Assembly (NCBI GenBank): GCA_021160705.1
Contig: JAGHBZ010000077.1
Coordinates: 1-29,250 of the forward strand
DNA from: Candidatus Sumerlaeota bacterium
Lineage (GTDB): Bacteria; Sumerlaeota; Sumerlaeia; MWCT01; JAGHBZ01
DNA: 29,250 nt
Direction: 5' to 3'
In this document: positions 7,983 through 26,508 of the stretch, piece by piece
How positions within the stretch are numbered: position 1 is the first letter of the stretch
Layout of the letters: the number at the start of each line of letters is the position of its first letter
The notes under the pieces: generated by a model
Told to the model about the DNA's origin: nothing
The model's input: only the letters and a program-made list of their open reading frames with translations
Database searches by the model: none
Made by a program: the position numbers and the translations under genes

Positions 7983-9554
7983 ATGTCGGGCACAAAAAAA
8001 GCTAACCTGTGGGAACGGCACTCGCTGGGGGTGGTTTTCGTGGCGCTTTTAGCAGGTTCAGCTCTCCTTATTTACGCTCATAGGATTACACCGTATTATC
8101 CGGCAGATAGTTATTTTTACCTTTCAAAGGCACGGAATTTAGTTCAGGGCAAAGGACTCACTGTCAACTGGAACGATGGGTATGATAATAAGTACTTCCC
8201 GGGATATTCAGTGCTCGTGGGTATAGCGGATATGTTATCCCCGGGTTCGCTTCAGCCCTGGTTTCCATTGCAATTATTATGCTTATGGGTGTCGGTGTTA
8301 TTGACGTTCTATTTATTTAAAGAGAGTGGAATAGATGCATTATTGGCGGCAACAACTGCTGGTGCACTTTCACTACATTTTGTTGTTCAAAAATGGAGTG
8401 CAGTGCCATCTGCAGAACCCACTGCACTGGTCTTTATATTGTTGTCGGTGCTCCTGTTTCGCAAAAGTATGTTTTACAGGGATAGGTGCGATACCGGTGA
8501 AGCAGGGCGAGGTAGGTGGAGTCAGCTTCTGGTGTGGGTCTATGGGGTGGGGAGTTTCCTATTAGCAGGTATTGCCTTTGCCACACGTGTGGAGGCAGGA
8601 TACCTCTGGGTAATCGGGATTATATATTTCTGGTATTTCAGAAAATGGCGAAGTTTTCCGGCTCCGGGTCTAATGATTTGCGGTGTCATACTATTTTTCG
8701 TCCCGCTTCTTATATGGCTACTCAGTCAGCCGAGGAGTGAGGGGTCTGCATCACTGCTGTATATCCAGGAGTTTTTTGCCCACCTCTCGTTAAGAGAGAC
8801 AGGAAAGAACTTTATGAGGTATTTATTGTCACCATTTTTAAGCAAAAGATTTATCTCATCATCGCCAATGGCTCAGTTTCTGATATATTTACTGAACGTT
8901 GTGGGAATAGTGAGCATTTTATTTGGTCTGCGAGGGGTAATGGGGCGAAGACTTCAGTTTGTCGCTCTGATAAGCGTGGGGTATATGGCGCTTCATTCTT
9001 TCTGGTATTATAGTTATGAGAGATTTATGTATCTTATTTCGCCTTTGTTATGTCTACTGCTGATGAGTACTTGCCGGGCATTTGTAGATGGAGGTTTTCG
9101 CGGTATTACCCGTTCGTCTTCACAAAAGCAGGCACTGTTTCTGATTGTTGCAATGGGAATATTTATTGTACAGGGACACTATTCAATGCTCCATATAAAA
9201 GACCATAGCGCACATCTGGTATTGCCGGATATGGACTATCGGGAGGTTGCTTCACGTGCAGATGAGTTTGCTGGTAAGGATGGCTCTGTACTAAGCCAAT
9301 GGGGTTCACCACTTGCGTATTACATACGGCGACCCGTGTTCATTGACACGGACGATAAATTCTATTATCGGCAGATGTTTTCAAAAGACAGGACACTGGA
9401 GTTTCTCAGAAAACATAACGTCCGTGTACTAATTATTCGGCAGACACTATTTGATTGGATGCTTACCCATAATATTCCTCTGAATATGAGCTCTCTGTTC
9501 AAACCTATAAAAGAAAGCAAGCACTACCGGCTCATATACGTCAAGCCAGAATAG
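7983..9554 (+). CDS. GT39/ArnT/PMT-like membrane glycosyltransferase (GT-C fold)
   Basis: 523 aa polytopic protein with first-loop 'ADSYFY...ARNL', 'PGYS', 'SAEP' loop, 'TR.E', 'YERFMY' and a soluble C-terminal domain. Confidence 0.7.
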   Translation: MSGTKKANLWERHSLGVVFVALLAGSALLIYAHRITPYYPADSYFYLSKARNLVQGKGLTVNWNDGYDNKYFPGYSVLVGIADMLSPGSLQPWFPLQLLCLWVSVLLTFYLFKESGIDALLAATTAGALSLHFVVQKWSAVPSAEPTALVFILLSVLLFRKSMFYRDRCDTGEAGRGRWSQLLVWVYGVGSFLLAGIAFATRVEAGYLWVIGIIYFWYFRKWRSFPAPGLMICGVILFFVPLLIWLLSQPRSEGSASLLYIQEFFAHLSLRETGKNFMRYLLSPFLSKRFISSSPMAQFLIYLLNVVGIVSILFGLRGVMGRRLQFVALISVGYMALHSFWYYSYERFMYLISPLLCLLLMSTCRAFVDGGFRGITRSSSQKQALFLIVAMGIFIVQGHYSMLHIKDHSAHLVLPDMDYREVASRADEFAGKDGSVLSQWGSPLAYYIRRPVFIDTDDKFYYRQMFSKDRTLEFLRKHNVRVLIIRQTLFDWMLTHNIPLNMSSLFKPIKESKHYRLIYVKPE

Positions 9555-9670: not shown

Positions 9671-9766
9671 TACAGGTCGCTCCTACGGAGCTCGGATGTC
9701 TCTACTTGCTGCCATTAACCCCAGCGCTGACGCACTGGGCTACATACAGGTCGTTCCTTCAGAACT
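9671..9766. repeat. REP-like palindromic element cluster between convergent genes
   Basis: TACAGGTCGCTCCTACGGAGCT (9671-9692) and TACAGGTCGTTCCTTCAGAACT (9745-9766) are 18/22 identical and flank the hairpin CCCAGCGC-TGAC-GCACTGGG (9720-9739). Confidence 0.7.
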
Positions 9767-10083
9767 ATACAAAAATGAGGCGGCACAAATTTCATTTGTA
9801 AAATCTCAAATGGGAAATGTTATAAGAGACAGGAGGAACGAACCTGAGCGCTACCAGGGCAGTTTTTTGGGGCTTATGGAGGTTTGCATATAAGTGGTTT
9901 TCATCATTAAGAGTTTTAATTGCCATTTGAAATGCTCATAAATAACACTCAGCAACTTCTTATAATCGTACCATTTTACCGAGAACTATTTCTAAAGAGG
10001 TATTTTTTTTCTGTATCTGCAAGGCACAAACTGGCAAGCCAATATTAACGTTAGACTCGCTTTTCATTTTTAGGAGCGGTGAA

Positions 10084-10359
10084 CTACTTGGAGTTAATGT
10101 TTATCCATTTTAAAATCTTTTCCTTATTAGACAAATCTCCGATAATACGCTGAGAGTGTGGAGGGGTTTCTTTAACGAGTGTAGGTGTAGCAAGTATTCT
10201 TTCCTGTTCAGCCAGTTCAGGTCGTTCAGTCACATTGATGATATTTAACTTACATACGCCCTTGAGTTCCTCCTCACATATTTGACGAAGCACCGCAATT
10301 GAGCGGTGAGATTGGGTCGTGTTACCGCTGATAAACAATTATAAAAAAATCTTATTCAT
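10084..10359 (-). pseudogene. kaiB: KaiB-family protein with an in-frame TAA at codon 7 (or a shortened TTG-start form, 10338-10084)
   Basis: 'ICEEEL...L.II.V.E.PELAEQERILATPTLVK..P...RIIGDLS..EKIL' is the KaiB signature. Upstream reads ATG AAT AAG ATT TTT TTA TAA TTG TTT ATC (MNKIFL*LFISG). Confidence 0.75.
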
Positions 10360-10423
10360 ATTACTCTCTTTCATCTGATTCACATATCGTGTTTCTCCTG
10401 AGCTATCTACTATGTTATCCATA

Positions 10424-11236
10424 TCAAGCAGTATTTGTCTTTTCTCGCAGATGGAGGAGATTGAAATGCGGATACATACCAGAATAGACAGAATCACACT
10501 TCTTACTCATAAATCTTGCCCGAAGTTTATCCACTGCTTGTGCTTGAAAAGGCGGAGTCGGTTTATTTCTTTCATCCCCACCGGGTAAACTTAATATCAT
10601 CGTATCTTTTTTTAGGGTTACCATTCCGGGCGAGAAAGTATTTGACTGAGCGTTGAGGCTATATTGCTTTAAAATTCTGGAGCAGTCCTGCTCAAAGCCA
10701 CCGAGTTGTTTGTTTACCATATCTTTGATTAATGCCTCCTTTTTCTTTTCAAGGACAGAACTCATCACAGCAGATGAAGGATGTGCAACCGGGTTTTCAG
10801 AGCTCAGGTGCTCTGGTAGGTAGCGAAGAATAGCCTTTTTTTGGAGTTTACCATTCCAATACACCATAACGCCCAGTTTATCTTTATCTTTCAGGGTCTG
10901 AAGATTCTCCAAAAGAGTGCCTTTATATTTTTCGAGCATTGCTTTTAGGGTGTCCTCAGTGTGAAACAGCGTTGCGAACCCAAATGGTACTGCACAAGAA
11001 TATCTCATCACTCCTTCTATAAGTTTCATATGAAGATTTGTTTTAAGCGTGAGCCACTCCGAACGCGTGATATTCGTCGGGGTAAATTCTTCTGCAGAGA
11101 CTTTGCTCACAACGGCGTAAAGCCCCTGGTGATACACAAAATATACCCCCTGGTCTAAGTAATAAAGGTCTTTGATGTTGGGTATAATATTGGTCACACA
11201 ATAAAGATAAATAATGCTGTTTTTTTCTCTGCCCAT
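10424..11236 (-). CDS. GvpL/GvpF-family gas-vesicle accessory-like protein (divergent)
   Basis: N-terminal 'IYLYCVT', 'GLYAVVSKVSAEEF', 'H..LIEGVM....VPFGFATLF' resemble the GvpL/F pattern; the C-terminal GPWPPY-type motif is degenerate (SGMYPHF). Confidence 0.7.
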   Translation of the reverse strand: MGREKNSIIYLYCVTNIIPNIKDLYYLDQGVYFVYHQGLYAVVSKVSAEEFTPTNITRSEWLTLKTNLHMKLIEGVMRYSCAVPFGFATLFHTEDTLKAMLEKYKGTLLENLQTLKDKDKLGVMVYWNGKLQKKAILRYLPEHLSSENPVAHPSSAVMSSVLEKKKEALIKDMVNKQLGGFEQDCSRILKQYSLNAQSNTFSPGMVTLKKDTMILSLPGGDERNKPTPPFQAQAVDKLRARFMSKKCDSVYSGMYPHFNLLHLREKTNTA

Positions 11237-11271
11237 CTTTTCACCTCTATAAAAGAGCTTAATTATTTGAG

Positions 11272-12339
11272 TTAACCCGGATGCTGACGTGCAAGGGGAT
11301 GATTGAAATGAAACGCATAATTTCTGATTAGTTCGTCCGAACGGTATACAAAGTCTTTTCCCCCAGGGTTAACCACCGAATGGGGCGACAGGAGCGTAGC
11401 TTCTTTATAAGTTTGCTTAAGACCAAGTTGACTTATTACTTTATTGCCGGGAAGGAGGTTATCAGCGTGCCATAGTTTATCGGAGTATTTTTGCTTTATT
11501 TCAAGGGTATAAAAACTGTAAGGGGGAAGGGGACCTAGACATTGAAACTCTAGCTTCTCACCAAATCTGGTATTGAGCCATTCTACTTTATTATAGAACT
11601 CGTGTTTTTCTGATTTATTGATTAAGAGTGCGGCATTCATCACTATCCCGGGATTCATCGGCTCAAGCATTTTAAATTCACGACATATATCCTTAAAGAC
11701 ATTCTGTAATCTGGATACGAGTTCTTCTACTTTGCGTTTCAACACTTGCTGGGTCAAAGAATTCAGAGCAATTCGCTCGGTTAACGTTATCTTTCTATGA
11801 TTAGTTAACAGTTTTTCTTTCAATTCTTTTATTTCTTTTTGTTCGGCGACCTGTCGGAGTATGGCTTTGAAATCACGCCACGTGACAATAACGTCAATTT
11901 CTATAAGGTTCTTAATTTCTTTCAGTATCTCTTTCAGTAACCAGTATCCTTCCTGTAAGATATGTCTGACCTCAGTTTCGTTCTCGGCAAAGGTGCCAAT
12001 ATTTACCGGGATGATTGTATACTTTAGATTCATAATTTTCTCAATAACGTCTCGATGCTTTCTCTGTAGACGCTCAAGCAGGTTTCGTGGTAGATTCGTG
12101 ATGTCAATCATCCGAGAATCACTCACAAGGGCAGAGATGTCTTTATAAGGAATTGTATATATCCAGGTGGGTGTTTTAGTTTCTGCTATAGTTGTTGAGG
12201 GAATTGTTGTGGTAATACTGGCGAAGTCAGTCACCTGTGGCTTGTGTTCACGCCACTCTGAGAGCGAGACAGGAGTAAAAATCTGAAGTACATTACCGGA
12301 GTTTACAATGCCGTAGATATATTTGCCAAGTTTATTCAT
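11272..12339 (-). CDS. GvpF/GvpL-family protein with a C-terminal J-domain-like tail
   Basis: 'GKYIYGIV', 'IYTIPYKDISALVSDS', 'HRDVIEKIM...TIIPVNIGT', 'EIDVIVTW', 'GPLPPYSF', then 'LKQTYKEATLLSPHSVVNPG'. Confidence 0.8.
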   Translation of the reverse strand: MNKLGKYIYGIVNSGNVLQIFTPVSLSEWREHKPQVTDFASITTTIPSTTIAETKTPTWIYTIPYKDISALVSDSRMIDITNLPRNLLERLQRKHRDVIEKIMNLKYTIIPVNIGTFAENETEVRHILQEGYWLLKEILKEIKNLIEIDVIVTWRDFKAILRQVAEQKEIKELKEKLLTNHRKITLTERIALNSLTQQVLKRKVEELVSRLQNVFKDICREFKMLEPMNPGIVMNAALLINKSEKHEFYNKVEWLNTRFGEKLEFQCLGPLPPYSFYTLEIKQKYSDKLWHADNLLPGNKVISQLGLKQTYKEATLLSPHSVVNPGGKDFVYRSDELIRNYAFHFNHPLARQHPG

Positions 12340-12363
12340 TTGCTATTTATTTTTATTAGATGT

Positions 12364-12549
12364 CTAAAGCCTATTTATTCCGAGTTCTATTTTTTGTAAC
12401 CGCCTTTTAAGAATATTTCTAATTATGGATGGGCTCGCTTTTTGGTGTAGGAGTGAGATTTTGTCTTTCTGTAGTAGATATAATTCTAAATGAGCCCGCG
12501 AATGAATTTGGGGTATAGAACGTAATTTTATGCCGTGTATAGTCTTAAT
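12364..12549 (-). CDS. Unannotated 61-codon ORF with ATT start (or a start-codon-mutated gene)
   Basis: SD AAGGAGGT (12563-12557 region) lies 7 nt before ATT at 12549. The frame IKTIHGIKLRSIPQIHSRAHLELYLLQKDKISLLHQKASPSIIRNILKRRLQKIELGINRL ends at TAG 12364, 24 nt before the gvpF-like ATG. No in-frame ATG/GTG/TTG back to the upstream stop. Confidence 0.55.
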   Translation of the reverse strand: MKTIHGIKLRSIPQIHSRAHLELYLLQKDKISLLHQKASPSIIRNILKRRLQKIELGINRL

Positions 12550-12589
12550 TGGGAAAACCTCCTTTTCTATGGAAGCCTTTACAGAAAGT

Positions 12590-12619
12590 GGGAGATGGTC
12601 TGCGTACAGACCGTCTCCC
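12590..12619 (-). terminator. Strong hairpin (terminator, attenuator or processing stem)
   Basis: GGGAGACGGTCTG-TACG-CAGACCATCTCCC, a 13-bp stem with one mismatch, followed on the minus strand by ACTTTCT (only a weak U-tract). Confidence 0.55.
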
Positions 12620-12621
12620 CT

Positions 12622-12776
12622 GTGCCGCCGAGAGGTGTGATAGGTCAGAAGAGAGCCTCAACCTTCAGTGGCAAAACCGAGGGTTCACGCTCTCGACCCG
12701 GTATGTAGAAAGGTTATTCTCCAGAGCTGTGACTCACTTTTCAGGTTGGGTTTCGTGTACCCTCTCTGACGGCAAC
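12622..12776 (-). ncRNA. Rod-shaped structured RNA candidate with 6S (SsrS)-like architecture
   Basis: Nested pairings found by eye: GTTGCCGTC-A-GAGAGG/CCTCTC-GGCGGC-AC; a central bubble of 12 and 23 nt; CAACCT-GAAA-AGTG/CACT-GA-AGGTTG; TCAC-A-GCTCT/AGAGC-GTGA. The G-U wobble favours the minus strand. The 3' CGGCGGCAC resembles the 3' conserved end of E. coli 6S (CGGCGGCAUC). Confidence 0.5.
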
Positions 12777-12930
12777 TCTATTTGAAATTCAGAAGGAAAT
12801 GAGTACCTGTGTGAAGTAAGAAAGCCAAAAGAAGCATATTTATACTTTACTCATTCCCTTTACGCCGTTATTCACGGTTATCAAAGAGCATTATGTGTAT
12901 AATTTTTTTAATACTAATAAGTGAATAGTA

Positions 12931-12946
12931 TGCAATACACGTGCCA
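12931..12946 (-). promoter_or_regulatory. sigma54 (RpoN) -24/-12 promoter
   Basis: Minus strand TGGCACGTGTATTGCA matches the consensus TGGCACG-N4-TTGC(A/T) with exact GG-N10-GC spacing; it lies about 160 bp downstream of an NtrC-family gene. Confidence 0.85.
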
Positions 12947-13108
12947 GAGAGTATGCGAACCGAGAAGATATTTGAAGAGCCGATGATAAGCTTATGGGGA
13001 CTCTTATTGAGGGGTATGGTAAAAGATAAGAGGATGCATAAGAGAAGGATTGCTTAAGGAGTCAGTAAGTAGAGTGAGACAGAGGTGGGACAGAAGTGGA
13101 CGGAATTG

Positions 13109-14479
13109 TCACAATCCCACACTTTTTAATCTTCTGTAGAGAGCTTTTCTGTGTATGCCCAGGAGTTCAGCAGCTTTTGTCTTATTTCCCCCGGCTTCTG
13201 CAAGTGCCTTTACAATCAGCTCTCTTTCAATCCTCCTGGTTATATCATTCAATGAAAGTCTTTGCTCTAAACTCTTTAAGCCACCACTACTCTCCGGTGA
13301 GGTAATTATGTGTGGGGGTAAATGGCAGGGTTTAATATATTCAGAATTTGTCAGAAGTACCGCTCTTCTTATGACATTTTTCAACTCCCGCACATTACCC
13401 GGCCAGGAGTAATTAAGAAAGGCTCTCATTACCTCCGGAGAGAATCCTTTTATCTTTTTATTAAATTCTTGATTTGCTTTATCCAGGATATATTGAGCTA
13501 GTAGAGGAATATCATCTTTTCTTTCGCGAAGGGCTGGAAGTGTGATATAGAATTCGTTCAGACGATAAAAAAGGTCGTGTCTGAATTTACCAGTTCTAAC
13601 TTCTTCATTGAGATTAACGTTGGTAGCGGCGATAATTCTGACATCTACTTCTATAAGTTTCTTCCCACCAAGATGTTGAATGCATTTATTTTCAAGTACA
13701 CGGAGGAGTTTAGCCTGTGCGGGTAGGGAGAGATTGGTTATTTCATCCAGGAATAATGTGCCGCCGTTTGCGCGTTCAAACTCGCCTTCTTTTTTAGTAT
13801 CTGCCCCGGTAAACGCCCCTTTTTCGTAGCCGAAGAGTTCGCTTTCAATTAGTGTTTCAGGGATAGCGCCGCAGTTAACAGCAACAAAAGGTTTGTTTTT
13901 CCGGTGGCTTTCCTGGTGAATCATCTGAGCGATTAATTCTTTGCCGGTGCCACTTTCACCCTCCAAAATAATTGTCATATTGGTAGGGGCAATAATCTTG
14001 ACCTGCTTGATGACCTGTTTTATCTCCGGGCTGTCGCCTATCAGTTCTTCGACCTCGGTCTTTTCATTCAATCTTTTTCTGAGGGTCTCTACTTCTTTGC
14101 TCAGGTGGCGTGTGTGAAGAGCCTTCCTGATTACCAGCACTATTTCTTCGCTATCAAATGGTTTGGTAATGTAATCATAGGCGCCTAACTTCATTGCCTG
14201 AACCGCACTTTTCACGTCCCCGTATGCGGTAAGCATAATGACCAGGAGGTCTTTATCAATTTTTTTCATCTCCTCTAAGACAGTGATGCCATCTTTTCCG
14301 GGTAGACGCATATCCAATAGGACCAGTGCGGGCGGATTCTCTTTAACTTCCTTTAGAGCGCGTATTCCATCACCCACTGCGGTGACGTCGAACCCTTCAT
14401 CCTTTAATACATTAGAGAGGATGAACCGCATATCTTTGTTATCGTCAACTATTAAAATCCTTTCCATTTTCTTCTCCAA
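13109..14479 (-). CDS. sigma54-dependent response regulator (NtrC/AtoC family; REC-AAA+-Fis HTH)
   Basis: Receiver (ILIVDD, LLDMRLP, KP), Walker [15 protein letters not shown] loop, 'GTLFLDEI', 'WPGNVREL', HTH '[19 protein letters not shown]'. Confidence 0.95.
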
Positions 14480-14566: not shown

Positions 14567-15838
14567 TCACCTGCACACACTTGCTACCGATTCAGTGTCT
14601 TCTGAAGAAGAGACCTTTGAGAAAGGCTGCTTCAGCACCGGAAATCTCACCGTCACTTCAGTGCCTTCGCCAGGTTTACTCTTAATATGAAGCCTTCCGT
14701 TATGGTAACTAATAATCTGGTGGGCTAAATACAAACCTAACCCCACGCCGTCATCTTTCGTGGTAAAGAAGGGTTCAAATATTTTATTTAAATTTTCTTG
14801 AGAAATGCCATAGCCAGAGTCTTTGAACCTGACGATTACCTCTTCAGAGTGTGGGTCAAAATATGAGGTAATATTCAGATTCCCGCCCTCAGGCATAGCA
14901 TCGCACGCATTGAGGATAAAGTTTAGAAATGTCTCCTGAAGGCTTTTTTTGTTGAGCAGGAGCGGTGGAAGATTTCTGTTGATTCTACGAGTGATGCGAA
15001 TACCCTGGCGTGCACAACGACCCTTAACGAGCTCCAGTGCACTGGCAATGACCTCGCCAATATCTCCCATCTCAAGTGTCAGGTCGCGTGGTCTGGCAAA
15101 ATCAAGTATATCCTTAAGAATCTTATTTGCATTCTCTGCGTTATCTAAAATAATCTTCAGATACTTTCTCAGGAGTGTGGTGTCGGTATGATTGCTGAGG
15201 CAGACTTGAGCTGCGGCGACTATACAACTCAGTGGATTTCTGATTTCATGGGCAAAGCCAGAGGCAAACCTTCCGAGTGCAGCGAGTTTCTCAGCCTGGA
15301 TAAGTTCCTGCTGAGTTTCCTTTAGCTCGGTGTATGCCTTTCTGAGAGCCTCCTCAGTGCGTTTCCGCTCGGTGATGTCGCGTGCAATACCCTGGATTGC
15401 ATAAGGGCGTCCATTGCGGTAAATCATCGAAGCGGTGGTCTCAACAAAAACATACTCGCCGTTCTTGCATCTCAGTTTAAACTCTGTAAGCCCATCCTGG
15501 TAGCCGGTTTCAATTATTTCTTTAAGCACCTTACAGGCTTTTGGAATCTGGTCTTTGCTAAGCAAAGATTTAAAATTAAGTGTAGCGAGTTCCTCCTTCT
15601 TATAACCCAGTAAATGCAGTGCGGCTGGATTAGCGTCGATGAAGTTTCCTTCCAGGTCGTGGAGATACACACAATCAAGTGAACGCTCAAACAGCGCCCG
15701 GTATCTTTCTTGGGTTTCCCGGAGTGTCTCTTCCATTTTGAGGGATTTGCTCATATTCATCATCTCCGTTGTAGTCCTCCCGAAGAAGAGGTAATCTCCA
15801 GGATTAATATCTGTATTTTTCATTTTCTCAACAATCAT
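14567..15838 (-). CDS. PAS-domain sensor histidine kinase (NtrB/AtoS-like)
   Basis: One PAS-PAC domain ('DITERKR'), H-box 'FAHEIRNPL', N-box 'NFILNACDAM', G boxes 'DSGYGI', 'FEPFFTTK', 'GLGL'. Confidence 0.93.
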   Translation of the reverse strand: MIVEKMKNTDINPGDYLFFGRTTTEMMNMSKSLKMEETLRETQERYRALFERSLDCVYLHDLEGNFIDANPAALHLLGYKKEELATLNFKSLLSKDQIPKACKVLKEIIETGYQDGLTEFKLRCKNGEYVFVETTASMIYRNGRPYAIQGIARDITERKRTEEALRKAYTELKETQQELIQAEKLAALGRFASGFAHEIRNPLSCIVAAAQVCLSNHTDTTLLRKYLKIILDNAENANKILKDILDFARPRDLTLEMGDIGEVIASALELVKGRCARQGIRITRRINRNLPPLLLNKKSLQETFLNFILNACDAMPEGGNLNITSYFDPHSEEVIVRFKDSGYGISQENLNKIFEPFFTTKDDGVGLGLYLAHQIISYHNGRLHIKSKPGEGTEVTVRFPVLKQPFSKVSSSEDTESVASVCR

Positions 15839-16111: not shown

Positions 16112-16744
16112 TCACTCCACAAGATTATGTTTTATCACATAATAAGTGAGTTCAGCATTATTTTTCATCCCCATTTTTTGCAAAACACGTGACCTATAGG
16201 TGCTGATAGTCTTTATGCTAAGTGCCATTTCCTCAGCGATTTCCTTAACGGTCTTTCCGGAAGCAATCATACGCATCACCTGATACTCCCGGTCTGAGAG
16301 ACGTTCGTGTGGGAGTTTATCTGTGTCGGTATCCAGTCTTGAGGCGAGTTTTTCAGCAAAAGAAGGGCTGATATATTTTCTGCCCTGAGAGACTTTTCGG
16401 ATTGCTCCAATCAATTCGTCAGGGGCACTCTCTTTAGTGAGATAACCTGAAGCTCCTGCCTTTATTACACGTTCAGCATAATGTTCTTCAGGGTGGATAC
16501 TTAACATAAGGACCTGAATCTTTGGTTTTGCAAATTTAATTTCTTTTAAGACATCCAGACCACTTCGCCCGGGCATACTAATATCTAACAGGACCACATC
16601 AAAATCCTCCTTAAGCACTTTGTTGAGCACTTCTTGAGATGTGGCGGCTTCGCCTGCCACTACCATATCGTCGGTCTCTGCGAGTATCTGCTTTATGCCT
16701 TCCCGCACTATTGGGTGGTCATCTGCTATAAGTATTTTTATCAT
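16112..16744 (-). CDS. NarL/FixJ-family response regulator (REC-LuxR HTH; UvrY-like)
   Basis: 'ILIADDHPIVREG', 'LLDISMPG', 'LSDREYQV...IASGKTVKEIAEEMALSIKTISTYRSRVLQKM'. Confidence 0.95.
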   Translation of the reverse strand: MIKILIADDHPIVREGIKQILAETDDMVVAGEAATSQEVLNKVLKEDFDVVLLDISMPGRSGLDVLKEIKFAKPKIQVLMLSIHPEEHYAERVIKAGASGYLTKESAPDELIGAIRKVSQGRKYISPSFAEKLASRLDTDTDKLPHERLSDREYQVMRMIASGKTVKEIAEEMALSIKTISTYRSRVLQKMGMKNNAELTYYVIKHNLVE

Positions 16745-19700
16745 TTTGTCCCTCCTAGATTAAGAGGAATAGTTACTATTACTGTAGTCCCTTTATTGTG
16801 TCTACCAGTAATTGAGAGAGTGCCTCCGATAGAGTAGCACCGCTCTCGCATTCCAATTAACCCAAATGAATGAGGGTCATAAATCTGCTTTTTATTAATT
16901 CCTATACCATTATCCTTAACTGTCAACACCAACTTATTGTGTTTTTGCCTCAAGCTGACACTAACCCGGCTAGCCTGAGAGTGTCGGGCAACATTTGTAA
17001 GGGTCTCCTGAAAGATTCGGAAAATCACCGTTGCTCGCGCCTTATCTACAACAATATCCTCCGGGGAGAGTTGTACTTCGCATTTCGTTCCAGTTCGTTT
17101 CTGAAACTCTTCAGCCTGCCATACGATAGCGGTAGCAAGCCCCAGGTCATCCAGTAATCCGGGTCTCAATTCGGTAGAGATTCTCTTGACGGTTTGAATG
17201 GTCATATCAATGAGTTTTAACATCGTTTCAGTCTTCTTAATAAGTGATGTGTGGTGTTTGGGCAATCTATTAGCCAGCCAGTAAACGTCCATTTTAAGGG
17301 CGGTCAAAGTTTGCCCTAACTCGTCATGAATCTCACGGGCAATTTGAGTCCTTTCTTCTTCACGGACTGAGTCCAGATGTCTGGCAAGTGCACGCATCTC
17401 TTTATGAGATTTCTCTAATTCCTCTAATGCTTTCAAACGTTCGGTCACGTCGGTTAAGATATAGACACCACCCATAAGATTCCCGGATTCATCCAGGAGT
17501 GGGTCAATGGATGCCTCAAACCATCTATCCTCCAGTTGTAGAACTGTGGTTTCTCTGCGAAGGGTTTTCCGCACACGTTGTACGATACAATCCTGTGGAG
17601 GTGAAGATGTTTTATGAATTAACTCATAGTGAGTGTGCCCCACTATTTCACTAAATGGTTTTCTTAAGAGTTCAGCGGTGGCTTTATTGCACCTCAAGAT
17701 TCTCCCCTTTGGAGACATTAAACAGACAGAGTCGCTAATAGCATCAAAGGTAGTGCGCCATTCACGTGCAGCCACACGTAGTGCCTCTTCTGCACGTTTG
17801 CGCTCTGTGATGTCGGTTAAGATATAGACACCGCCCATAAGATTCCCGGATTCATCCAGGAGTGGGTCAATGGATGCCTCAAACCATCTATCCTCCAGTT
17901 GTAGGACTGTGGTTTCTCTGCGAAGGGTTTTCCGCACACGTTGTACGATACAATCCTGTGGAGGTGAAAATGTTTTATGAATTAACTCATAGTGAGTGCG
18001 CCCCACTATTTCACTAAATGGTTTTCTTAAGAGTTCAGCGGTGGCTTTATTGCACCTCAAGATTCTCCCCTCTGGAGTCATCAAACAGACAGAGTCGCTA
18101 ATAGCGTCAAATGTAGTGCGCCACTGTCGTGCAGCTCCCCGTAGAGCCTCTTCAGCACGTTTGCGGTCTGTGATATCCTGTCCAATGCCATAAAAGATTC
18201 TTTTACCTGATACAGTTAAGGGAACCACATTGAGTAAGAGAGTTTTACTCTTTCCGTGAACCGAGTATTCAGTCTCAATAGTGCGCCGAGCAAGGGAGAG
18301 AGAACCTTTGTGATTCTCCTGGTTCAGGACAGTTTCCGGGAGTAACTCCCAGAGTTTGCGAGTAGGAAGTTCATCGCGTCTATGCTCCAGGAAGTCAAGG
18401 GCTGAGTTGTTTGCGTCAATGAACCGCCCTTTCTCATCAACTATAAAAATGGGGTTAAGAGCCTCTTCGAACAGAGTGCGGTACATCATTTCGCTTTCCC
18501 GGAGGGATTCCTCAGCCTGAATACGTTCCAGTGCGCCACCACAATGGTCTGCAAGTAACTGCAATGTCTTAAGGTCATCCTCTGTGTAGGCATACGGGGT
18601 ATAACTCTGAATGGATAATATCCCTACCACTTTTTTGCCTTTTCGGATGGGAACAAACATCAACGAGGCTGAACGTCGTGAGGTATTACCAAAGGGTATC
18701 AGGTTACTTTCCACGTCAGTAGTATCTCGCAAAATTAGTTGACCACCCTCTATAACTGTGCGTTCCTCAATCTTACTCGGGAATTTGCCACTTAATACGG
18801 GTGGAAACTCAATTTTCTTTCCGTCTATGGTGTCAATATTCAACACCGAATAGACCGCATGCACCTCAGGTATGTAATGAGAAACAAAACAAGCGTCCCA
18901 GCCAAGGAGATGCTCTGCTGTATCAACAATAACTTTTGCGGCTTCTTTCTGGCTCTTTGCCCCATTAAGTCTTTGTCCCAGTTCTGCAAACGCCTTGCTA
19001 CGTTCTTCAGCTCGCTTGAGTTCAGTAATGTCGCTTAGAGATGCAACATAGCCTGCCTCTACATCTGTGGGGTCTACACATACAACTGAAAGCATACACC
19101 AGAACCTGGTGCCGTCTACCCTTTGTAGATGTAGTTCCCGCATATCAATCCCGGTTCTTCGGACCGATTCTGTAGCTGAGTGGATGTACTCCTCGTACTC
19201 CTCTTTACTTGCAAATAAGCCTCTCAGGGAGAGACCTATCACATCCGCGGTGCTGGTGCATTCAGGGTCAAGGATTATCCGCATTGAACGGTTCGCATAC
19301 ATTATCTTCCAATCCGGGCTCAACATACATAACCCGTGGGGAGTGCTACGCAATATCGCTTGATACTGCATTTGTAATTTTTGTAGTTCATCACGGCTTT
19401 TACGTAACTCTTCCTCTGTTCGTTTTCTATCAGTAATATCCTGTAATATGCCAAGCGACCCAATGACCTTTCCTGTTCTTTCGTCACGTACAGGGACCGA
19501 GCAATCGGTGAGCCATTTCTCTTCACCCGAGGGGGTAATTATCCGTAAATCCATCCGATAGCGTTTTACCTTACCTAGCCTAAACATCCTGCCATATTCA
19601 AAAGGGTCAGAGGGTGCATCTGGTTCGGTAACTATCATCTCTTTTGTAATCTCTCTCATTTTTTCAAAAGTTAGCTCAGAGGATGGTATACCCAGGAGTT

Positions 19701-21591
19701 CCTTACATCCTTCACCCATAAACTCATACATATAATCAGTATATTTCAACAGGTAGGGCAGTCCCTGAGCGTTCTCAATAGCACTTCTATAGATGTAATG
19801 TGCTTGTTTTAATTCTTCTTCTGCACGTTTACGTTCGGTAATGTCTGTATCTGCGCCCCTATATCCGAGAAGATTGCCATCCTTATCAAGAATTGGCACA
19901 CCACTGGTTGTTAACCACACCGTAGAGCCATCCTTGTGGATATTACGATTAAGAAAGTTATGGAATGATTGTTTTTTCTGAAATGAGTCAAACACAAACT
20001 TTTTGAGTTTCTCTCGGTCATCCGGATGAAAGAAGTCATAAAAATGCATTTTTCCCACGACTTCTTCAGGTTTGTAGCCAAGAATCTTCTCCACCATTGG
20101 ACTTGAGTAGGTGTAAACCCCCTGAGTGTCAATTTCCCAAATCCATTCTTGGGCATTTTCAGCCACCTGTTTAAATCGTTCTTCAGACTCCCGAAGCTCT
20201 GCGGTCTTTTTAATTAATTGATGTGTGAGAAGCAGGTTTTCCACAGCGGGAGCAATCTGACGCCCAACAGCGCTTAGAAGTTCTACATCTCTCTGTGTGT
20301 AGGCATTAAAAGTGTAGCTCTGAACTGACATAACGCCAATCACACGTTCGCCAACAATTAGCGGGACAAAGACCAGAGAGGCAGAGGGTCTGCTTTTATC
20401 TCCGAATGGGACGAATGAGCCAGGGCTGTACGTTGAGACTGTTTTGTCCGTTAAGTCCGAGGGCTTGCGATGGATGAGAATGGGTTTCTTTTTCTCAAAG
20501 ACTATTTTAGTGCTGGGACCTTTACCAAGTTCAAACTTCACATCCACTTGCGAGACACGACGAAACTGCCCGTCAATGGTGTCGAAATTGCCCAAGCCGT
20601 AGAGTTCATCCGTACCGGGGATGTAAGCGTCGAGATAGAAAGCATCCATCCGCAGGACTCCGCGTAAGACTCGCACAAGGGAGTCACTGAACTCTTCAGG
20701 GGTGCGACTGCTGACAATTGCACGGCTTACCGAGAGTAATGTTGAAAGTGTCTGGTTGGTCGTAAGGAGCTCCTCTTCAGTGCGCTTGCGGGCGGAAATA
20801 TCTCTGCCAATCCCAACAATTGCCACCACATTTTTCTCTTCATCCAGTACAGCTTTGTATGCCCACCCAAACCATCTCCAGCCCTCCTGAGTCATTGCTC
20901 TGTGTTCTACATAGCAAGAATAGGGTGGACGATAGAGGGTGGACATTGCCTCGGCGGTAGCTTTCCGGTCATCCTGATGGATAAAGGGTATGAAATTTCT
21001 ACCGAGCAATTCCTCCTCGCTCTTGCCGAAGGTCTCACAATAGGTCTTGCTTACAAAAAGAAGCCTTCCCTCAATATCAACTTTCACGATTAGGTCTGTC
21101 TGGTTTTCCACAAGGAGTCTGTAGCGTTCTTCATTAGTGCGGAGTCGGGATTCCAGGCGTTTGAGCTCAGTGATGTCTTTAATTGTTGCGAAATAATTGA
21201 CAACATTCCCCTGGGCGTCTTTTATGCAGGCTGGGGAGACGAGGACAGGGAACCGCTCGCCGGACTTTCGCATAAACGTCAACTCAAACTCCCGGAATTC
21301 ACCTCGTTTAATTTTCTGAAATGTCCTTTCTATTTCTTTGAACTCCTCAGGTGGACAAAACGGATGTGGCATACCAACTCCCAGAAGCTCTGCTCTTGAA
21401 AACCCAGTCATCTCACAAAAAGCCGGGTTCACATCAATAATAACACCATCTGGGTCAACCACATAAAGTCCATCTTTCATCAGGGAAATGAGAGTGTCTG
21501 AGAAGGAGTCCATCTCCTGTAGCGTCTTTCTGGCGTGTTTACGCTCAGGAAAGAGTCTGTGTTTAATTTGTTTTCTTCTCCCTTGTTTCAT
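16741..21591 (-). CDS. Large cytoplasmic multi-PAS/GAF histidine kinase, HisKA_3 (NarX/NreB) class
   Basis: About 8 PAS/PAC modules and 2 GAF domains; H-box 'EEERTQIAREIHDELGQ'; 'FRIFQETLTNVARHSQA', 'DNGIG', 'FGLIGMRER'. No transmembrane segment seen. Overlaps the NarL-type gene by 4 nt. Confidence 0.93.
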   Translation of the reverse strand: MKQGRRKQIKHRLFPERKHARKTLQEMDSFSDTLISLMKDGLYVVDPDGVIIDVNPAFCEMTGFSRAELLGVGMPHPFCPPEEFKEIERTFQKIKRGEFREFELTFMRKSGERFPVLVSPACIKDAQGNVVNYFATIKDITELKRLESRLRTNEERYRLLVENQTDLIVKVDIEGRLLFVSKTYCETFGKSEEELLGRNFIPFIHQDDRKATAEAMSTLYRPPYSCYVEHRAMTQEGWRWFGWAYKAVLDEEKNVVAIVGIGRDISARKRTEEELLTTNQTLSTLLSVSRAIVSSRTPEEFSDSLVRVLRGVLRMDAFYLDAYIPGTDELYGLGNFDTIDGQFRRVSQVDVKFELGKGPSTKIVFEKKKPILIHRKPSDLTDKTVSTYSPGSFVPFGDKSRPSASLVFVPLIVGERVIGVMSVQSYTFNAYTQRDVELLSAVGRQIAPAVENLLLTHQLIKKTAELRESEERFKQVAENAQEWIWEIDTQGVYTYSSPMVEKILGYKPEEVVGKMHFYDFFHPDDREKLKKFVFDSFQKKQSFHNFLNRNIHKDGSTVWLTTSGVPILDKDGNLLGYRGADTDITERKRAEEELKQAHYIYRSAIENAQGLPYLLKYTDYMYEFMGEGCKELLGIPSSELTFEKMREITKEMIVTEPDAPSDPFEYGRMFRLGKVKRYRMDLRIITPSGEEKWLTDCSVPVRDERTGKVIGSLGILQDITDRKRTEEELRKSRDELQKLQMQYQAILRSTPHGLCMLSPDWKIMYANRSMRIILDPECTSTADVIGLSLRGLFASKEEYEEYIHSATESVRRTGIDMRELHLQRVDGTRFWCMLSVVCVDPTDVEAGYVASLSDITELKRAEERSKAFAELGQRLNGAKSQKEAAKVIVDTAEHLLGWDACFVSHYIPEVHAVYSVLNIDTIDGKKIEFPPVLSGKFPSKIEERTVIEGGQLILRDTTDVESNLIPFGNTSRRSASLMFVPIRKGKKVVGILSIQSYTPYAYTEDDLKTLQLLADHCGGALERIQAEESLRESEMMYRTLFEEALNPIFIVDEKGRFIDANNSALDFLEHRRDELPTRKLWELLPETVLNQENHKGSLSLARRTIETEYSVHGKSKTLLLNVVPLTVSGKRIFYGIGQDITDRKRAEEALRGAARQWRTTFDAISDSVCLMTPEGRILRCNKATAELLRKPFSEIVGRTHYELIHKTFSPPQDCIVQRVRKTLRRETTVLQLEDRWFEASIDPLLDESGNLMGGVYILTDITERKRAEEALRVAAREWRTTFDAISDSVCLMSPKGRILRCNKATAELLRKPFSEIVGHTHYELIHKTSSPPQDCIVQRVRKTLRRETTVLQLEDRWFEASIDPLLDESGNLMGGVYILTDVTERLKALEELEKSHKEMRALARHLDSVREEERTQIAREIHDELGQTLTALKMDVYWLANRLPKHHTSLIKKTETMLKLIDMTIQTVKRISTELRPGLLDDLGLATAIVWQAEEFQKRTGTKCEVQLSPEDIVVDKARATVIFRIFQETLTNVARHSQASRVSVSLRQKHNKLVLTVKDNGIGINKKQIYDPHSFGLIGMRERCYSIGGTLSITGRHNKGTTVIVTIPLNLGGTK
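17449..18174. repeat. In-frame tandem duplication, 2 x 363 bp (one PAS-PAC module)
   Basis: 17449-17811 versus 17812-18174; about 18 differences by manual count (about 95% identity). Confidence 0.95.
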
Positions 21592-21800
21592 AATGATGCA
21601 CCTGCAAAACTCACTGCCCCTCTTTTTCTAAAGAGAGTGCAGTAATATTTATTCTGAAAGCAACTAATAATAATGGACTTATGTTATTCACTGTGGCGAA
21701 TCTATGCAACGAAGTTCTGTTTGTTAGCTCCATTCAGAGAGTTTTATATACTTCTTCGGCGAAGATTAAGCAAAAGTTTAGGCAAATCCTATGAGTGTAA

Positions 21801-22715
21801 TCAGTCCACAAGATTAGGTTTCTGGGTCAAGGAGTTATATTTTTCACGCTTTTGCTCATACATCAATGCATCCGCTTGCTCAAGAATCTCTTCAATTGAA
21901 CAGGGTCTCATAGGGTCATAATGGGCTACTCCAAAACTCAGAGAAAGAGGGAAAGGAAAGGTTCTTTCACGATTATATTTACTTAGGTTGTTCTGCAACC
22001 GTGCAATAATATAATTAGTGGACTCGCGGGTAGCATCTAACACGAGGATAACAAACTCATCTCCAGCGATACGGGCGATGATGTCGGATTTGCGAAATGT
22101 GTTTTTAAGGAGCCCGGCAATTTCTATTAACACGCGGTCACCTTCACAGTGACCAAAATTGTCATTAATCCATTTCATTCCGTCCACGTCGGCAAAAATA
22201 AGATACATCTCCCGCTTTTTACGGTCGGCAATCTTAATTTGCTGTTCAGCCAGGGTGAGAAATCCACGCCGATTGTAAAGTCCAGTAAGGTCGTCATAAA
22301 GTGATAAGGCTTTGAGAGATTCCTTTAACTTTTGGTGTTGGATAGCATATCGAATGGAGCGTTCCAGGAGAGATGGTGAGAGTTGAGCTTTTTCCAGATA
22401 CCCGGCGGCACCAAAGTGCATAGCAGAGAGGTCTACCTTGCGGTCGCCCTGTGATGTAAGTAAGAGCATAGGAGCACTGCACCCATAGGCGAGAGCTTCT
22501 CGCATTAGCTCCAGCCCATCCTTTGCCCCAAGCCGATAGTCAATTAGGTAAACATCGTGTTCTGAGCATTTAATCGCATTCAGACCGTCTTCATACGTAG
22601 AGACCCAGTCAAGTTTAAAGTTCACATCCTCAATCCCGGAAAGCATATCTTTAGTAAGGATATAATCCTCTTCGTCATCATCGATAAGTAGAATTCTAAT
22701 TACTGTTTTGCTCAT
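21801..22715 (-). CDS. Response regulator-diguanylate cyclase (REC-GGDEF), AGDEF variant
   Basis: Receiver 'ILLIDDD...LIDY'; cyclase 'DDLTGLYNRR', 'DVDGMKWINDNFGHCEGD', I-site RKSD, 'RIAGDEF'. Confidence 0.92.
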   Translation of the reverse strand: MSKTVIRILLIDDDEEDYILTKDMLSGIEDVNFKLDWVSTYEDGLNAIKCSEHDVYLIDYRLGAKDGLELMREALAYGCSAPMLLLTSQGDRKVDLSAMHFGAAGYLEKAQLSPSLLERSIRYAIQHQKLKESLKALSLYDDLTGLYNRRGFLTLAEQQIKIADRKKREMYLIFADVDGMKWINDNFGHCEGDRVLIEIAGLLKNTFRKSDIIARIAGDEFVILVLDATRESTNYIIARLQNNLSKYNRERTFPFPLSLSFGVAHYDPMRPCSIEEILEQADALMYEQKREKYNSLTQKPNLVD

Positions 22716-22724
22716 ATTGTTCCC

Positions 22725-23177
22725 TCACTCTTGTTCAGGGGGTTCACCAATAGGAGACCAAATTTGCCAGAGAGTTTTTAGGGTATTAATAAGACAATCA
22801 AGGGTAACGGGTTTAGTGATATAGGAATTAGCCCCCATTTTATAGCTCTGCACGATGTCTCTCTCTTCAGAGGATTGTGTGAGTACAACCACCGGGATGT
22901 CGCATAACAAGGGGTCAGTTTTTATTTCTTTAAGTACTTCATAACCATCTTTTTTCGGCATATTGAGGTCAAGCAGAATCAGGTCTGGACGTGGTGCAGA
23001 GTCAGGGTCTACAAATTTACCACGTTGCTGGAGATACTCTAAGAGACACTCGCCATCCTCAACGACCCGGAGTTCATCCGTTAATTCCCTCTCCATCACT
23101 ATATCTTTGAGTAACATTCTATCCTCCGGGTCGTCGTCCGCTAATAGAATAATGAAGCGTTTTCGAGATTCAGTCAT
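22725..23177 (-). CDS. Single-domain response regulator, Rcp1-like
   Basis: 'ILLADDDPED', 'PRPDLILLDLNMPKKDG.EVL.EIK.DP.L..IPVVVLT.S....DI..SY..GANSYITKP'. Confidence 0.9.
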   Translation of the reverse strand: MTESRKRFIILLADDDPEDRMLLKDIVMERELTDELRVVEDGECLLEYLQQRGKFVDPDSAPRPDLILLDLNMPKKDGYEVLKEIKTDPLLCDIPVVVLTQSSEERDIVQSYKMGANSYITKPVTLDCLINTLKTLWQIWSPIGEPPEQE

Positions 23178-26100
23178 TGATACAGTTCTCCTTTGTGTTG
23201 GTGGACTGGAAGTATGACGATAAAAGTCGTTCCCTGTGCAGGCTTACTTTTTGCTGTGATTTGACCATTATGACAGTCCACAATTTTTCTACAGAGCGCA
23301 AGTCCTATCCCGGTGCCCTCGTATTTACCACGCCCGTACAGGCGCTGAAATGGCAAAAAGATGCGGTCAAGATACTTCTCATCAAACCCTATTCCGTTGT
23401 CTTCTACAAAAATTTGATAGTATTTAACATTTTCAGCACCAATCTTTTCTTCATCTTTGTTTTGTAGCAAAGGCTGACTATATACCCTTACCCGAGGCGT
23501 GACATCAGGACGGCGGAATTTCAGGGCATTACCAATAAGATTTTGAAATAGCTCTCGCATAAGTGTGGGGTCTGCATCAATTGTCGGCAGCTCTGCTACC
23601 TCCACGTTCGCTCCAGTCTCCTGAATTTGTACCTCCAGGTCTGATATGACATCCTGGAGAATTTTGTTGAGATTAACCGCCACAAATTGCCTCCCTTGAG
23701 TGGTAACACGTGAAAAGGCAAGTAAATCCTGGATTAATCTCCGCATTCGGTGTGTGGCATTCAGCATCCGCATTAAATAATCTCGCCCCTGCTCGGTGAG
23801 TTCTTCAAAGCAAATATCTTTAAGCCTATCCCCGAAGCTCTGAATCTTTCGTAGAGGTTCTTGCAGGTCATGGGAGGCTATATAGGCAAACTGCTCTAAC
23901 TCGGTATTTGAGCGCTCCAGAGCCTTTGCTCTCTGGATAAGTTCCTCTTCTATTCGTTTACGTTCTGTAATATCCTGCAGAATCCCCAGTGAATAAGTAG
24001 CTTCGCCGGTCTTTTCGTCACGGATGTTTATGGAATAATCGCTTAACCATTTTTCCTCACCCTGGGGGGTGATGATTTTCAGGTCAACCCTATAACGCTC
24101 AATTTCTCCTCTAAGGAATGCGTCAATGTATTCATTAAGAGGGAGTGCGGAATGCTCCGGGTCGGCTATAATGATTTCTTGTTGAAGAGTTTCCAAATCT
24201 TTTCTGGTTAGTTTCGAGCAAGGGATTCCTATAAGCGTGTCACATCCCTTGCCTATGAACTCATAGGTCTCAGTGGCATAATTGAGGATGTAAGGGACGC
24301 CCTGAGCATTTTCTATTGCCTTACGATAGATTTCGTGTACGTGGTTCAATTTTTCCTCAGCCATCCTGCGTTCTGTGATATCTTCTCCAGAGCTTAGCAC
24401 GCCTATGATATTATTTTCTCTGTCTTTTATTATAGTATTATGACAGGCAATAATTCTTTCCTCTCCCTGTTTATTCAAGACTGGATTTTCAAAATATTCA
24501 ACTGGCTCTATTTCTCCTGCCATCAGTTTATCAAAAACGGATTTAACCTCACTCCTTAGCCTTTGGGGGAGGAAATTACTGAACCAGTTTTTGCCGATGA
24601 TTTCTTCCTCTGAATAGCCAAGGATTTCACAACCTTTCTTGTTGATGAGAGTGACCTCACCTTTTGCATTGACGGCTACAATCATTACTCCGGCGACATC
24701 AAGATATTTCTGTGCTCTTTCTTTCTCTTCGCGGAGGGCAATTTCTGCTTGTACCCGCCGTAATGCGGGTGCCACCGTGTCCGCAATTGACTTTAGTAGA
24801 CCCAGCTCTTGTTCTCCATACCGATTTGGTTGATAGGATTGAACAGAAAGGATGCCAAATACGTCTCCAGCGAAGCTTATCGGAACAAAAAGCAGACTCC
24901 AAGAAAGACGCGAGGTATCACCAAAGCGGGACATTGGGAACATATCTTCAGTCTCCCGATTAAGAATAAGGGGCTTACCCTCCAGGAGTTGGTTTAACCC
25001 GGGATACGGGGGAGGGGTGTTGTCGGTTGATTTAAAAGCAACCCGTTTGCCATTAATGGTATCCACAGCGTATACCCTACGGAATAAATTGGAGTGAGGT
25101 AAACGTTCTGCAAAAAAGAAGGCATCCCAGTTGAAGAGCTCATCAGTAGCCTGACTCAGTAGGATAGCGATTGCCTCCAGAGTATCAGCTTCAACCAATT
25201 GAACCCCCAGTTGGGCAAAGGTCTGTCTTTCTATCTCTGCGCGTTTTCGCTTGGTAATATCGACCACCACTGAGCGTCTCTCCACAACATTGCCATTCTC
25301 ATCTTTGATTGCATTGACCGAGAGAAGCCCGTAGACTTTTTGTCCATCTTTTCTCCTATAGACCATCTCTTCATTTTTCCATTCTTTTCCTTTTAGAAAT
25401 TGTGCAAATAATTGTTTTGCTTTATCTTTTGATTCCTCTGCATAAAGGTCAAAGACCTTCATTCTTTGCAGCTCTTCCAGCGAGTATCCGGTGAAATCTG
25501 CTGCTGCCTTATTAGCTCTTTTTATCAAGCCATCTCTACCCACGGAAAAGTAAGCGACTGGTGCACTCTCATAGAGGTCCTGGTATCTAAGCTGTGATTC
25601 TCGGAGTTCAGCAGTGCTTTGAATCAATTGCTGGTGCAAAAGCAGACCTTCAACTGCGGGAGCTATCTGACGTGCCACGGCTTTGAGAAGCTCCACATCC
25701 TGCAGGGTGTAAGCATTAAAGGTATAGCTCTGGACTGAAAGAATACCAATGACTCGTTCGCCAACAACTAGTGGCACATAGAGCAAAGAAGCTGATGGAC
25801 GCGAGGTGTCGCCAAAACGAATAAATCTGTCTGCATCTAATTCTATCTCTTCAGGTTTACGATGGATGAGCACAGGTTCTTTATCTTCAAAGATAGACTC
25901 TGCAATAGGACTCTTTTCGCGATCGAAAAATCCACTCACAGGGGAGACGCGTTGAAATTTCCCATTAATTGTATCAAAACATCCGGTACTTAAGATTTTA
26001 TATGAATCAGGATAATATGCATCTATAAAGAAGGCGTCAACTCGCATTACCCGACGTAATTCGTATGCGAGTGCTTCGCTTAGTTGCTCGGGGGTGCGGG

Positions 26101-26275: not shown

Positions 26276-26508
26276 TACATCTTCTTCTCGCGGCAGAGTA
26301 TATTCTACACCTTAATATATTTATCTGTCATTTTGCTGAATACTTTACAATTAGTTTCATTTTTTTAATGCATTTCTGGATATTAACCTGTCAGGATGTA
26401 GAAAAAGGAAACTTATTATGATTTTAACGTGTTTAATCATAGGCAATAGAGTTATTGGTAGGGATTGATTTATCTTGGAAAATAACCGTCCAAATCTTAT
26501 TATAAGGA

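Follow-up and report, generated by a model that had tools for sequence, protein, structure and literature searches.

A probable remnant of a kinase/NtrC/sigma54-controlled gas-vesicle gene cluster, with a divergent GvpF–GvpL pair, in a Candidatus Sumerlaeota bacterium

What is a pair of gas-vesicle accessory genes doing between a sigma54 promoter and a kaiB gene, in DNA in which no gas-vesicle shell gene can be found? This question is raised by a 29,250-nucleotide (nt) stretch of a Candidatus Sumerlaeota bacterium (assembly GCA_021160705.1, contig JAGHBZ010000077.1, positions 1 to 29,250), hereafter the window, which belongs to a 3.08-Mb metagenome-assembled genome (MAG) that is 82% complete and consists of 486 contigs. 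An earlier reading of the letters and open reading frames (ORFs), the sequence-only reading, offered two answers: a candidate new system in which proteins of the GvpF/L fold and KaiB would act together, or the remnant of a sigma54-controlled gas-vesicle (gvp) regulon. The second has fared far better as an account of origin. The locus is very likely a reduced gvp cluster of the kind that is controlled by a sensor kinase, an NtrC-type activator and sigma54, and the fuller statement, that it is such a reduced cluster whose retained genes keep a residual or altered role, is the one we favour, with a good deal more reserve. On the minus strand, the order is kinase, NtrC-type activator, sigma54 site, leader, small ORF, GvpF-type gene with a J-domain tail (GvpF-J), GvpL and kaiB.

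14567–15838, minus strand: sensor kinase with PAS, HisKA and HATPase domains (Pfam), the activator's partner, from the ancestral gvp-cluster head
13109–14479, minus strand: NtrC-type sigma54 activator (Pfam REC, Sigma54_activat and HTH_8; GAFTGA at residue 221, Walker A at 174)
13074–13120, minus strand: candidate enhancer repeats, GTGGGAT followed by CCGTCCAC, CTGTCCCAC and CTGTCTCAC, with a period of about 11 nt (read from the sequence)
12931–12946, minus strand: predicted sigma54 promoter TGGCAC-N5-TTGCA, the sole such site in the window (motif match)
12565–12920, minus strand: structured leader of about 355 nt, with an AT-rich 5' part, a GC-rich multibranch 'rod' (12772–12623) and a hairpin (12624–12586)
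12364–12564, minus strand: small ORF, homologue of a gvp-cluster protein (tblastn), with a possible ATT start at 12549
11272–12339, minus strand: GvpF-type gene with a degenerate, shortened J-domain tail (GvpF-J), 355 amino acids (aa) (Pfam GvpL_GvpF, 150.2 bits, 1.3e-43)
10424–11236, minus strand: GvpL-type gene, 270 aa (Pfam GvpL_GvpF, 84.0 bits)
10084–10383, minus strand: orphan kaiB (Pfam KaiB, PF07689, 82.5 bits at 10338–10084, profile positions 2–81 of 82)

As a description of what is there, the sequence-only reading stands in full: Pfam confirmed the four minus-strand genes, the sigma54 site, the Shine-Dalgarno (SD) sequence and the RNA folds held up on re-checking, and the intergenic gaps of 24, 35 and 64 nt were re-measured and are correct. 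The 24–35 nt junctions are clean spacers with no gene fragments inside them. An independent JGI assembly (contig L101), 99.72% identical over 7244 nt, matches the gene order and the junctions from 12751 to 5508, and the arrangement is therefore not an assembly artefact. In the two independent assemblies, unrelated genes flank the cluster on both sides. The window and L101 differ at 20 positions in 7.2 kb, too few for an informative ratio of non-synonymous to synonymous substitution rates (dN/dS), and contigs with the locus at 95–99% identity come from hydrothermal-vent and marine-sediment metagenomes of several studies.

The origin of the locus emerges from the company kept by relatives of GvpF-J. 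This protein has more than 600 homologues, and among the 120 best listed 118 are fusions of GvpL_GvpF with DnaJ, about 350 aa long, a fusion for which no published description was found in the literature. A scan of species-representative genomes gave 80 GvpF-J loci, from MAGs whose labels include Omnitrophota, Pirellulales, Ignavibacteriales, Nitrospinae/Nitrospinota, Atribacteria and Latescibacter, and all of the inspected contigs with GvpF-J homologues proved to be full gvp clusters. They encode GvpN, GvpA, Hsp20, an ArsA-like ATPase, a Cdc48-type AAA+ protein, GvpF-J, further GvpF/L proteins, GvpG, GvpJ, GvpK and more GvpA-like proteins; where both flanks are long, GvpA-family, GvpG and Cdc48-type genes are found in every locus, and GvpN and GvpK in nearly all. 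Their complete order is kinase, (receiver), NtrC, sigma54 site, gvpA, gvpN, small protein, Hsp20, ArsA-like ATPase, Cdc48-type AAA+, GvpF-J, further GvpF/L, gvpG, gvpJ and gvpK. The matching heads of these clusters point to an ancestral design made of a kinase, (a receiver), NtrC, a sigma54 promoter, then gvpA and the rest. This cluster type, which is widespread in uncultivated phyla, also carries a CXXCXGXG zinc-finger protein.

It is the head of this design that the window shares most faithfully. The best homologue of its kinase lies directly upstream of the cluster-head NtrC gene, co-oriented and on the same contig, in all five genomes tested, with a receiver gene between the two in some of these five extended genomes. 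An orthologue of its NtrC gene (full-length or truncated by the contig flank), likewise co-oriented, heads 10 loci, with identities of 42–66% in nine and 36% in L093. The window NtrC is 59–66% identical to the cluster-head proteins of L018, L022, L034, L058, L071 and L072; its median identity to the others is 59.5%, against 49.5% among the others themselves, and its terminal branch in a maximum-likelihood tree has an ordinary length (0.38; the median is 0.33). As for the promoter, exactly one TGGCA(C/T)-N5-TTGC(A/T) site occurs within up to 21 kb in 7 of the 10 NtrC-headed loci, and this single site lies between the NtrC gene and gvpA (L018, L034, L058, L066, L068, L071 and L080; in L066 it precedes a receiver gene that intervenes before gvpA). 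Sites of the TGGCAC-N5-TTGCA type number 5 in the whole 3.08-Mb genome, where base composition predicts 2.4. The element of the window is identical in a strain (run X5) whose surrounding sequence has changes at 12917, 12951 and 12960. As judged from sequence, everything expected of a sigma54 promoter with its cognate activator is in place, that is, GG and GC elements with consensus spacing, a GAFTGA motif in the activator and, on contig C421 of the same genome, rpoN. As far as these comparisons go, the head of the locus (kinase, NtrC gene and sigma54 site) has been kept unchanged from the ancestral design. Together, the orthologous complete clusters, with the same kinase, the same NtrC gene and a single sigma54 site before gvpA, bear out the proposal that the locus began as a sigma54-controlled gas-vesicle regulon.

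The repeats upstream of the promoter can be offered as a lead only. They sit 130–170 nt upstream of the −24 element, and the orthologous gap of L034 contains TGGGAC and two copies of GTCCCAT at a similar distance; they may represent the activator-binding enhancer. One enhancer motif common to all clusters was considered and rejected, since the lineages differ and only L034 resembles the window.

The sequence-only reading knew of no description of its combination of elements, but control of gvp genes by sigma54 has in fact been described. In Serratia sp. ATCC 39006, gvpA1 depends on sigma54 and on the NtrC-like GvrA, with a consensus sigma54 site upstream of the mapped start, and its control also requires GvrB and GvrC (PMC4982088). 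The window shares with Serratia a cluster-encoded NtrC-family activator, a consensus sigma54 site and a sensor kinase in the circuit, and so keeps the control logic; it differs in that its operon has no gvpA or other structural gene, in that its regulator gene immediately precedes the promoter and is not part of a second operon, and in that its accessory genes are those of another cluster type. The kinase/NtrC/sigma54 head is conserved wherever the head of a cluster is visible (10 of the 80 loci; the labels of these MAGs include Omnitrophota, Atribacteria and Desantisbacteria), which extends the GvrA paradigm well beyond enterobacteria.

Behind this head, most of the cluster is gone. When cluster proteins of L013, L015 and L017 were used in tblastn, only GvpF-J, one GvpL and the small protein were retrieved, which leaves the window without roughly 15 of about 20 cluster genes, including all structural and chaperone genes. 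Neither the window nor the 3.08-Mb MAG gave a Pfam Gas_vesicle (PF00741) match, tblastn with three GvpA/J proteins was equally negative, and gvpN, gvpG, gvpK and gvpJ had no tblastn match in the 82%-complete MAG. The earlier statement that the window has neither gvpA nor kaiC is thus upheld by Pfam, tblastn and KaiC searches; genome-wide, gvpA/J, N, G and K were likewise not found, whereas kaiC does occur, once, in a kaiC–kaiB pair on another contig (C157). Association of ArsA and Hsp20 genes with gvp clusters has been noted before (PMC2963123). Set against the chaperone-rich gvp clusters of uncultivated phyla, the window has GvpF-J, GvpL, the small protein, NtrC, the kinase and the promoter as orthologous parts, but about 15 of 20 genes have gone, the HPD motif of the J domain has been lost, the tail is shortened and divergence is faster. 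Among degenerate or rearranged gvp clusters of cyanobacteria, that of Anabaena PCC 7120 has likewise ceased to support normal vesicle formation, and it is described as intact though partially degenerated (PMC7204071); compared with the cluster as described there, the window differs in that its shell genes are gone altogether. The locus is, in short, explained by a known kind of regulon, a sigma54/NtrC-controlled gvp cluster, in a heavily reduced and lineage-specific form.

In the window, the place of gvpA is taken by the leader. Complete clusters have roughly 60–225 nt between the sigma54 site and gvpA, and the window has about 355 nt between the sigma54 site and the small ORF, which contain no ORF. 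The 3' part has a GC content of 51%, against 35–41% in the neighbouring genes, and the predicted fold is stronger than chance for the whole leader (z −4.1, with none of 100 shuffles as good), the hairpin at 12624–12586 (z −6.2) and the 'rod' at 12772–12623 (z −2.6). No Rfam covariance model matched, either at the gathering threshold or at E values up to 5, and blastn found no similarity to the leaders of eight orthologous NtrC–gvpA intergenic regions. A hidden gvpA or gvpN remnant was rejected, as nothing rose above chance (tblastn with word size 2 over a 769-nt region, and blastn with the same eight intergenic regions), and so was a repeat or mobile element, the leader being single-copy in the genome. 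Known from one species only, it could be a new cis-regulatory leader, the source of a leader-derived small RNA, or structured debris. Complete clusters may have an RNA element of their own. Just downstream of gvpA, L018 (~1545–1620), L034 (~2122–2150), L058 (~1689–1760) and L022 (~2505–2580) share the sequence GGAUUCUUGYCRA..CACCCU...CGCCAAGWGAKUCC, which is predicted to form a long hairpin (z about −3 for L018 and L058), may be a conserved RNA element of such clusters, and is absent from the window.

The small ORF that follows is a diminished member of the cluster. Its homologues, 102–110 aa long, are a conserved gvp-cluster protein found in 42 of the 80 loci, usually just after gvpN; tblastn gave identities of 40% over 72 aa with L013 2974–3306 (E 4e-10 against the genome) and of 39% with L017 568–876, and the ORF lacks the C-terminal third of these homologues. 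The frame spans 61–66 codons at 12564–12367, is open for 61 codons from the ATT at 12549 and holds no ATG, GTG or TTG anywhere. The sequence-only reading had made of this a perfect SD followed by an ATT-start ORF of 61 aa. The AAGGAGG, 9 nt before the ATT, the ATT itself and the 61 codons are all present, but the SD may not be one: its bases spell the codons K-E-V, aligned with K-D-V at the N-terminus of the homologues, and may simply be inherited coding sequence that by chance now lies 9 nt ahead of an ATT. One strain contig has homopolymer changes just upstream of the ATT (+1 at 12553, −1 at 12585), which would suit an ATT start as well as a non-coding relic.

The two GvpF/L genes have travelled much further from their relatives than the regulator has. 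Both products exceed the Pfam PF06386 cut-off of 23.6 bits, and both score under the NCBIfam GvpF and GvpL equivalog cut-offs. GvpF-J aligns over its whole length, its best match is only 41–42% identical, and no relative between 42% and 100% identity was found among 5.8 billion proteins; a single-protein scan of genome contigs gave no close relatives of the reduced cluster either. GvpL is the orthologue of the gene that stands third among the GvpF/L genes in the canonical order, not of the one that usually follows GvpF-J. Its best match, L013 10461–11324, is 41% identical (E 8e-44), and its identity to orthologues is about 35%, whereas these are 55–65% identical among themselves. Maximum-likelihood trees give the window a terminal branch of 1.32 for GvpF-J (median 0.40) and of 1.30 for GvpL (median 0.53). 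For pairs of loci whose NtrC proteins are 58–67% identical, GvpF-J identities are 49–59% among complete clusters and 38–42% when the window is one of the pair; overall, the retained GvpF/L genes are about 2–3 times more diverged than the regulator predicts, and their rate of evolution has been about three times that of the regulator. Simple vertical inheritance from kin was rejected as an account of the locus: gvp clusters occur in only 2 other genomes of the 44 in the phylum, and even the complete cluster in a genome of the same order (G008) includes a GvpF-J that is likewise only 40% identical.

In GvpF-J, the window protein deviates at 32 of 92 columns in which conservation among 29 other members reaches at least 90% (19 in the GvpF core, 13 in the tail); for those members the median number of deviations is 4 and the maximum 8. 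The HPD(K/R)NP of the homologues has become HSVVNP, and nothing in the window protein corresponds to the C-terminal ~35 residues of the family alignment. The tail that the sequence-only reading called J-like does align with the J domain of the family, but Pfam DnaJ (PF00226) does not detect it at an E value of 0.01 and its HPD reads HSV.

Are such genes still worth anything to the cell? When random mutation was simulated up to the excess divergence (28% of residues for GvpF-J, 38% for GvpL), with insertions and deletions ignored, the frame stayed open in 0.1% and 0.45% of runs, respectively. Strain variants in codons 129–261 of GvpF-J comprise 7 synonymous and 4 non-synonymous changes among the differences listed (40 of 75), a bias with a binomial P of ~0.008 if 75% of changes are assumed to be non-synonymous under neutrality; in the same listed set, a synonymous bias is absent from the J-tail (2:2, including double hits) and from the small ORF (2:3). 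The changes in the retained genes would fit a relaxed or altered constraint after loss of the partner genes. Since the polymorphisms are few and were read from low-depth contigs, we treat it as likely, and not more, that the GvpF/L genes are still under selection. The suggestion that these are decaying genes is slightly off: they are heavily altered, but they have apparently been kept open by selection.

The last gene, kaiB, has a different history. Its domain is complete, although the score lies under the NCBIfam equivalog cut-offs, and its nearest relatives (57–60% identity) are each followed directly by kaiC, in many cases amid receiver and kinase genes. It thus resembles the kaiB of non-cyanobacterial kaiB–kaiC operons, from which it differs by lacking an adjacent kaiC and by the presence of a nonsense allele; neither kaiC nor a remnant of it was found in the window, including downstream of kaiB. 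This allele is an in-frame TAA at 10341–10339 in the window, where L101 (P0121) has AAA (Lys) and an intact frame of 99 aa from the GTG at 10383; the difference makes the stop either a strain-level nonsense allele or an error. The TAA is directly followed by a TTG, from which re-initiation could yield a KaiB without half of its first strand. The only KaiC of the genome (G000), a double-domain protein on contig C157 (1124–3147), is followed by a kaiB of its own, in the order kaiC–kaiB; this second KaiB is only 32% identical to that of the window, whose relatives have the order kaiB–kaiC. No KaiB occurs within 10 kb of any of the 80 GvpF-J loci, and no second lineage links GvpF/L to KaiB, the other copies belonging to the same population or to its strains (one of them 99.7% identical); lack of recurrence was one of the outcomes that the sequence-only reading had itself named as refuting its proposal. 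Nothing points to KaiB and the GvpF/L proteins working as partners. The window kaiB is probably the survivor of a kaiB–kaiC pair and probably dispensable in at least one strain; it is a lineage-specific, accidental neighbour, not a defining part of any system.

How might the locus work, if it does? On the reading that we prefer, a reduced gvp cluster with a residual or altered role, the phosphorylated activator would bind the repeats at ~13120–13074 and open the sigma54 promoter at 12946–12931, giving a transcript that would begin with the 355-nt structured leader and continue through the small ORF, GvpF-J, GvpL and probably kaiB, read-through transcription into kaiB being plausible because no terminator is predicted between it and GvpL. 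In the absence of GvpA, a gas vesicle could not form. The open frames and the synonymous-biased polymorphism suggest that GvpF-J and GvpL most likely persist as a GvpF–GvpL-type complex with a residual or altered role, made of GvpF/L-fold proteins that have lost the Hsp70-recruiting HPD motif and changed at many family-conserved residues. In working gas-vesicle systems, GvpF binds GvpA and GvpL is the hub of an accessory complex (PMC7688916). If it is true that GvpF/L genes are selected without GvpA, this would be the first hint of a function of the fold outside gas vesicles; the locus also provides a natural 'minimal' GvpF–GvpL pair for study.

Several points weigh against this reading: (i) to our knowledge, a GvpF–GvpL pair without GvpA has no known partner or function, (ii) the excess divergence could come from an unsampled donor lineage that still has a full cluster, (iii) a separate gvp cluster could lie on unbinned contigs, the MAG being only 82% complete, (iv) where the transcript starts, whether the genes are co-transcribed and whether the small ORF is translated are matters of prediction and (v) the polymorphism comes down to 11 codons, on low-depth contigs, with 40 of the 75 differences listed. 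A bolder version, in which the GvpF/L pair and a small coiled-coil partner have been selected without the shell genes and wired, behind a new 355-nt leader, to the ancestral kinase/NtrC/sigma54 switch as a repurposed assembly module, possibly linked to KaiB/KaiC, can be put forward only tentatively.

At the other extreme, the small ORF, GvpF-J, GvpL and kaiB might all be non-functional and on their way to deletion, with the two-component regulator perhaps the only part in use. Much of the damage catalogued above would suit such an end: the change of HPD to HSV, the shortened tail and the 32 deviating columns of GvpF-J, a small ORF with neither canonical start nor C-terminal third and with strain indels just upstream, the nonsense allele of kaiB, and variation in the J-tail and small ORF that is not synonymous-biased. 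We nevertheless regard it as unlikely that the whole operon is dead, since both long frames are open where neutrality would predict several stops (P 0.001 and 0.0045, indels ignored), the GvpF core has its 7 synonymous against 4 non-synonymous changes, the spacers are clean, and the sigma54 site is unaltered in a diverged strain.

Quite improbable, in our view, is that gas vesicles are still made, with gvpA and the other missing genes on contigs outside the MAG and the retained genes serving as ordinary accessories. The incomplete and fragmented state of the MAG, the intact regulator and promoter, and the apparent purifying selection on the GvpF core would all be compatible with a cluster split in this way, but 3.08 Mb yielded no gvp structural gene, the well-flanked loci are all contiguous, each one cluster headed by the same regulator, unrelated genes bound the window's cluster on both sides in two assemblies, and neither accelerated evolution nor loss of the HPD would be expected of a working accessory protein. 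Finally, the candidate new signalling or assembly system of the sequence-only reading, in which GvpF/L-fold proteins and KaiB would act together under sigma54, perhaps with the C157 KaiC, is very hard to sustain, because the adjoining, co-oriented genes (gap 40–64 nt, no terminator predicted between them), the intact KaiB frame of one assembly and the double-domain KaiC of the genome have to be set against a linkage that recurs at none of the 80 loci and in no second lineage, the nonsense allele in the window's own strain, nearest KaiB relatives that pair with an adjacent KaiC, and a genomic KaiC that already has its own, only distantly similar KaiB.

The surroundings of the locus deserve a few words. 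Upstream of the kinase and NtrC genes, the same orientation continues through more signalling genes at 16112–26886 on the minus strand, whose products are a REC-GerE regulator, a 1616-aa protein, a REC-GGDEF protein, a REC protein, a GAF/PAS histidine kinase and another REC protein; beyond the NtrC gene, ancestral membership of a gvp cluster has been shown for the 14567–15838 kinase only. On the other side of kaiB and convergent with it, 9720–9766 on the plus strand matches the Rfam Acido-Lenti-1 small RNA (39.2 bits, against a gathering score of 37); this match lies inside a 65-codon 'ORF' (9696–9893), which may be no protein gene, as neither Pfam nor NCBIfam matches it. Also on the plus strand, 7983–9554 encodes a 523-aa protein, also with no Pfam or NCBIfam match, which holds 11 of the 20 differences between the window and L101 (7 synonymous and 4 non-synonymous).

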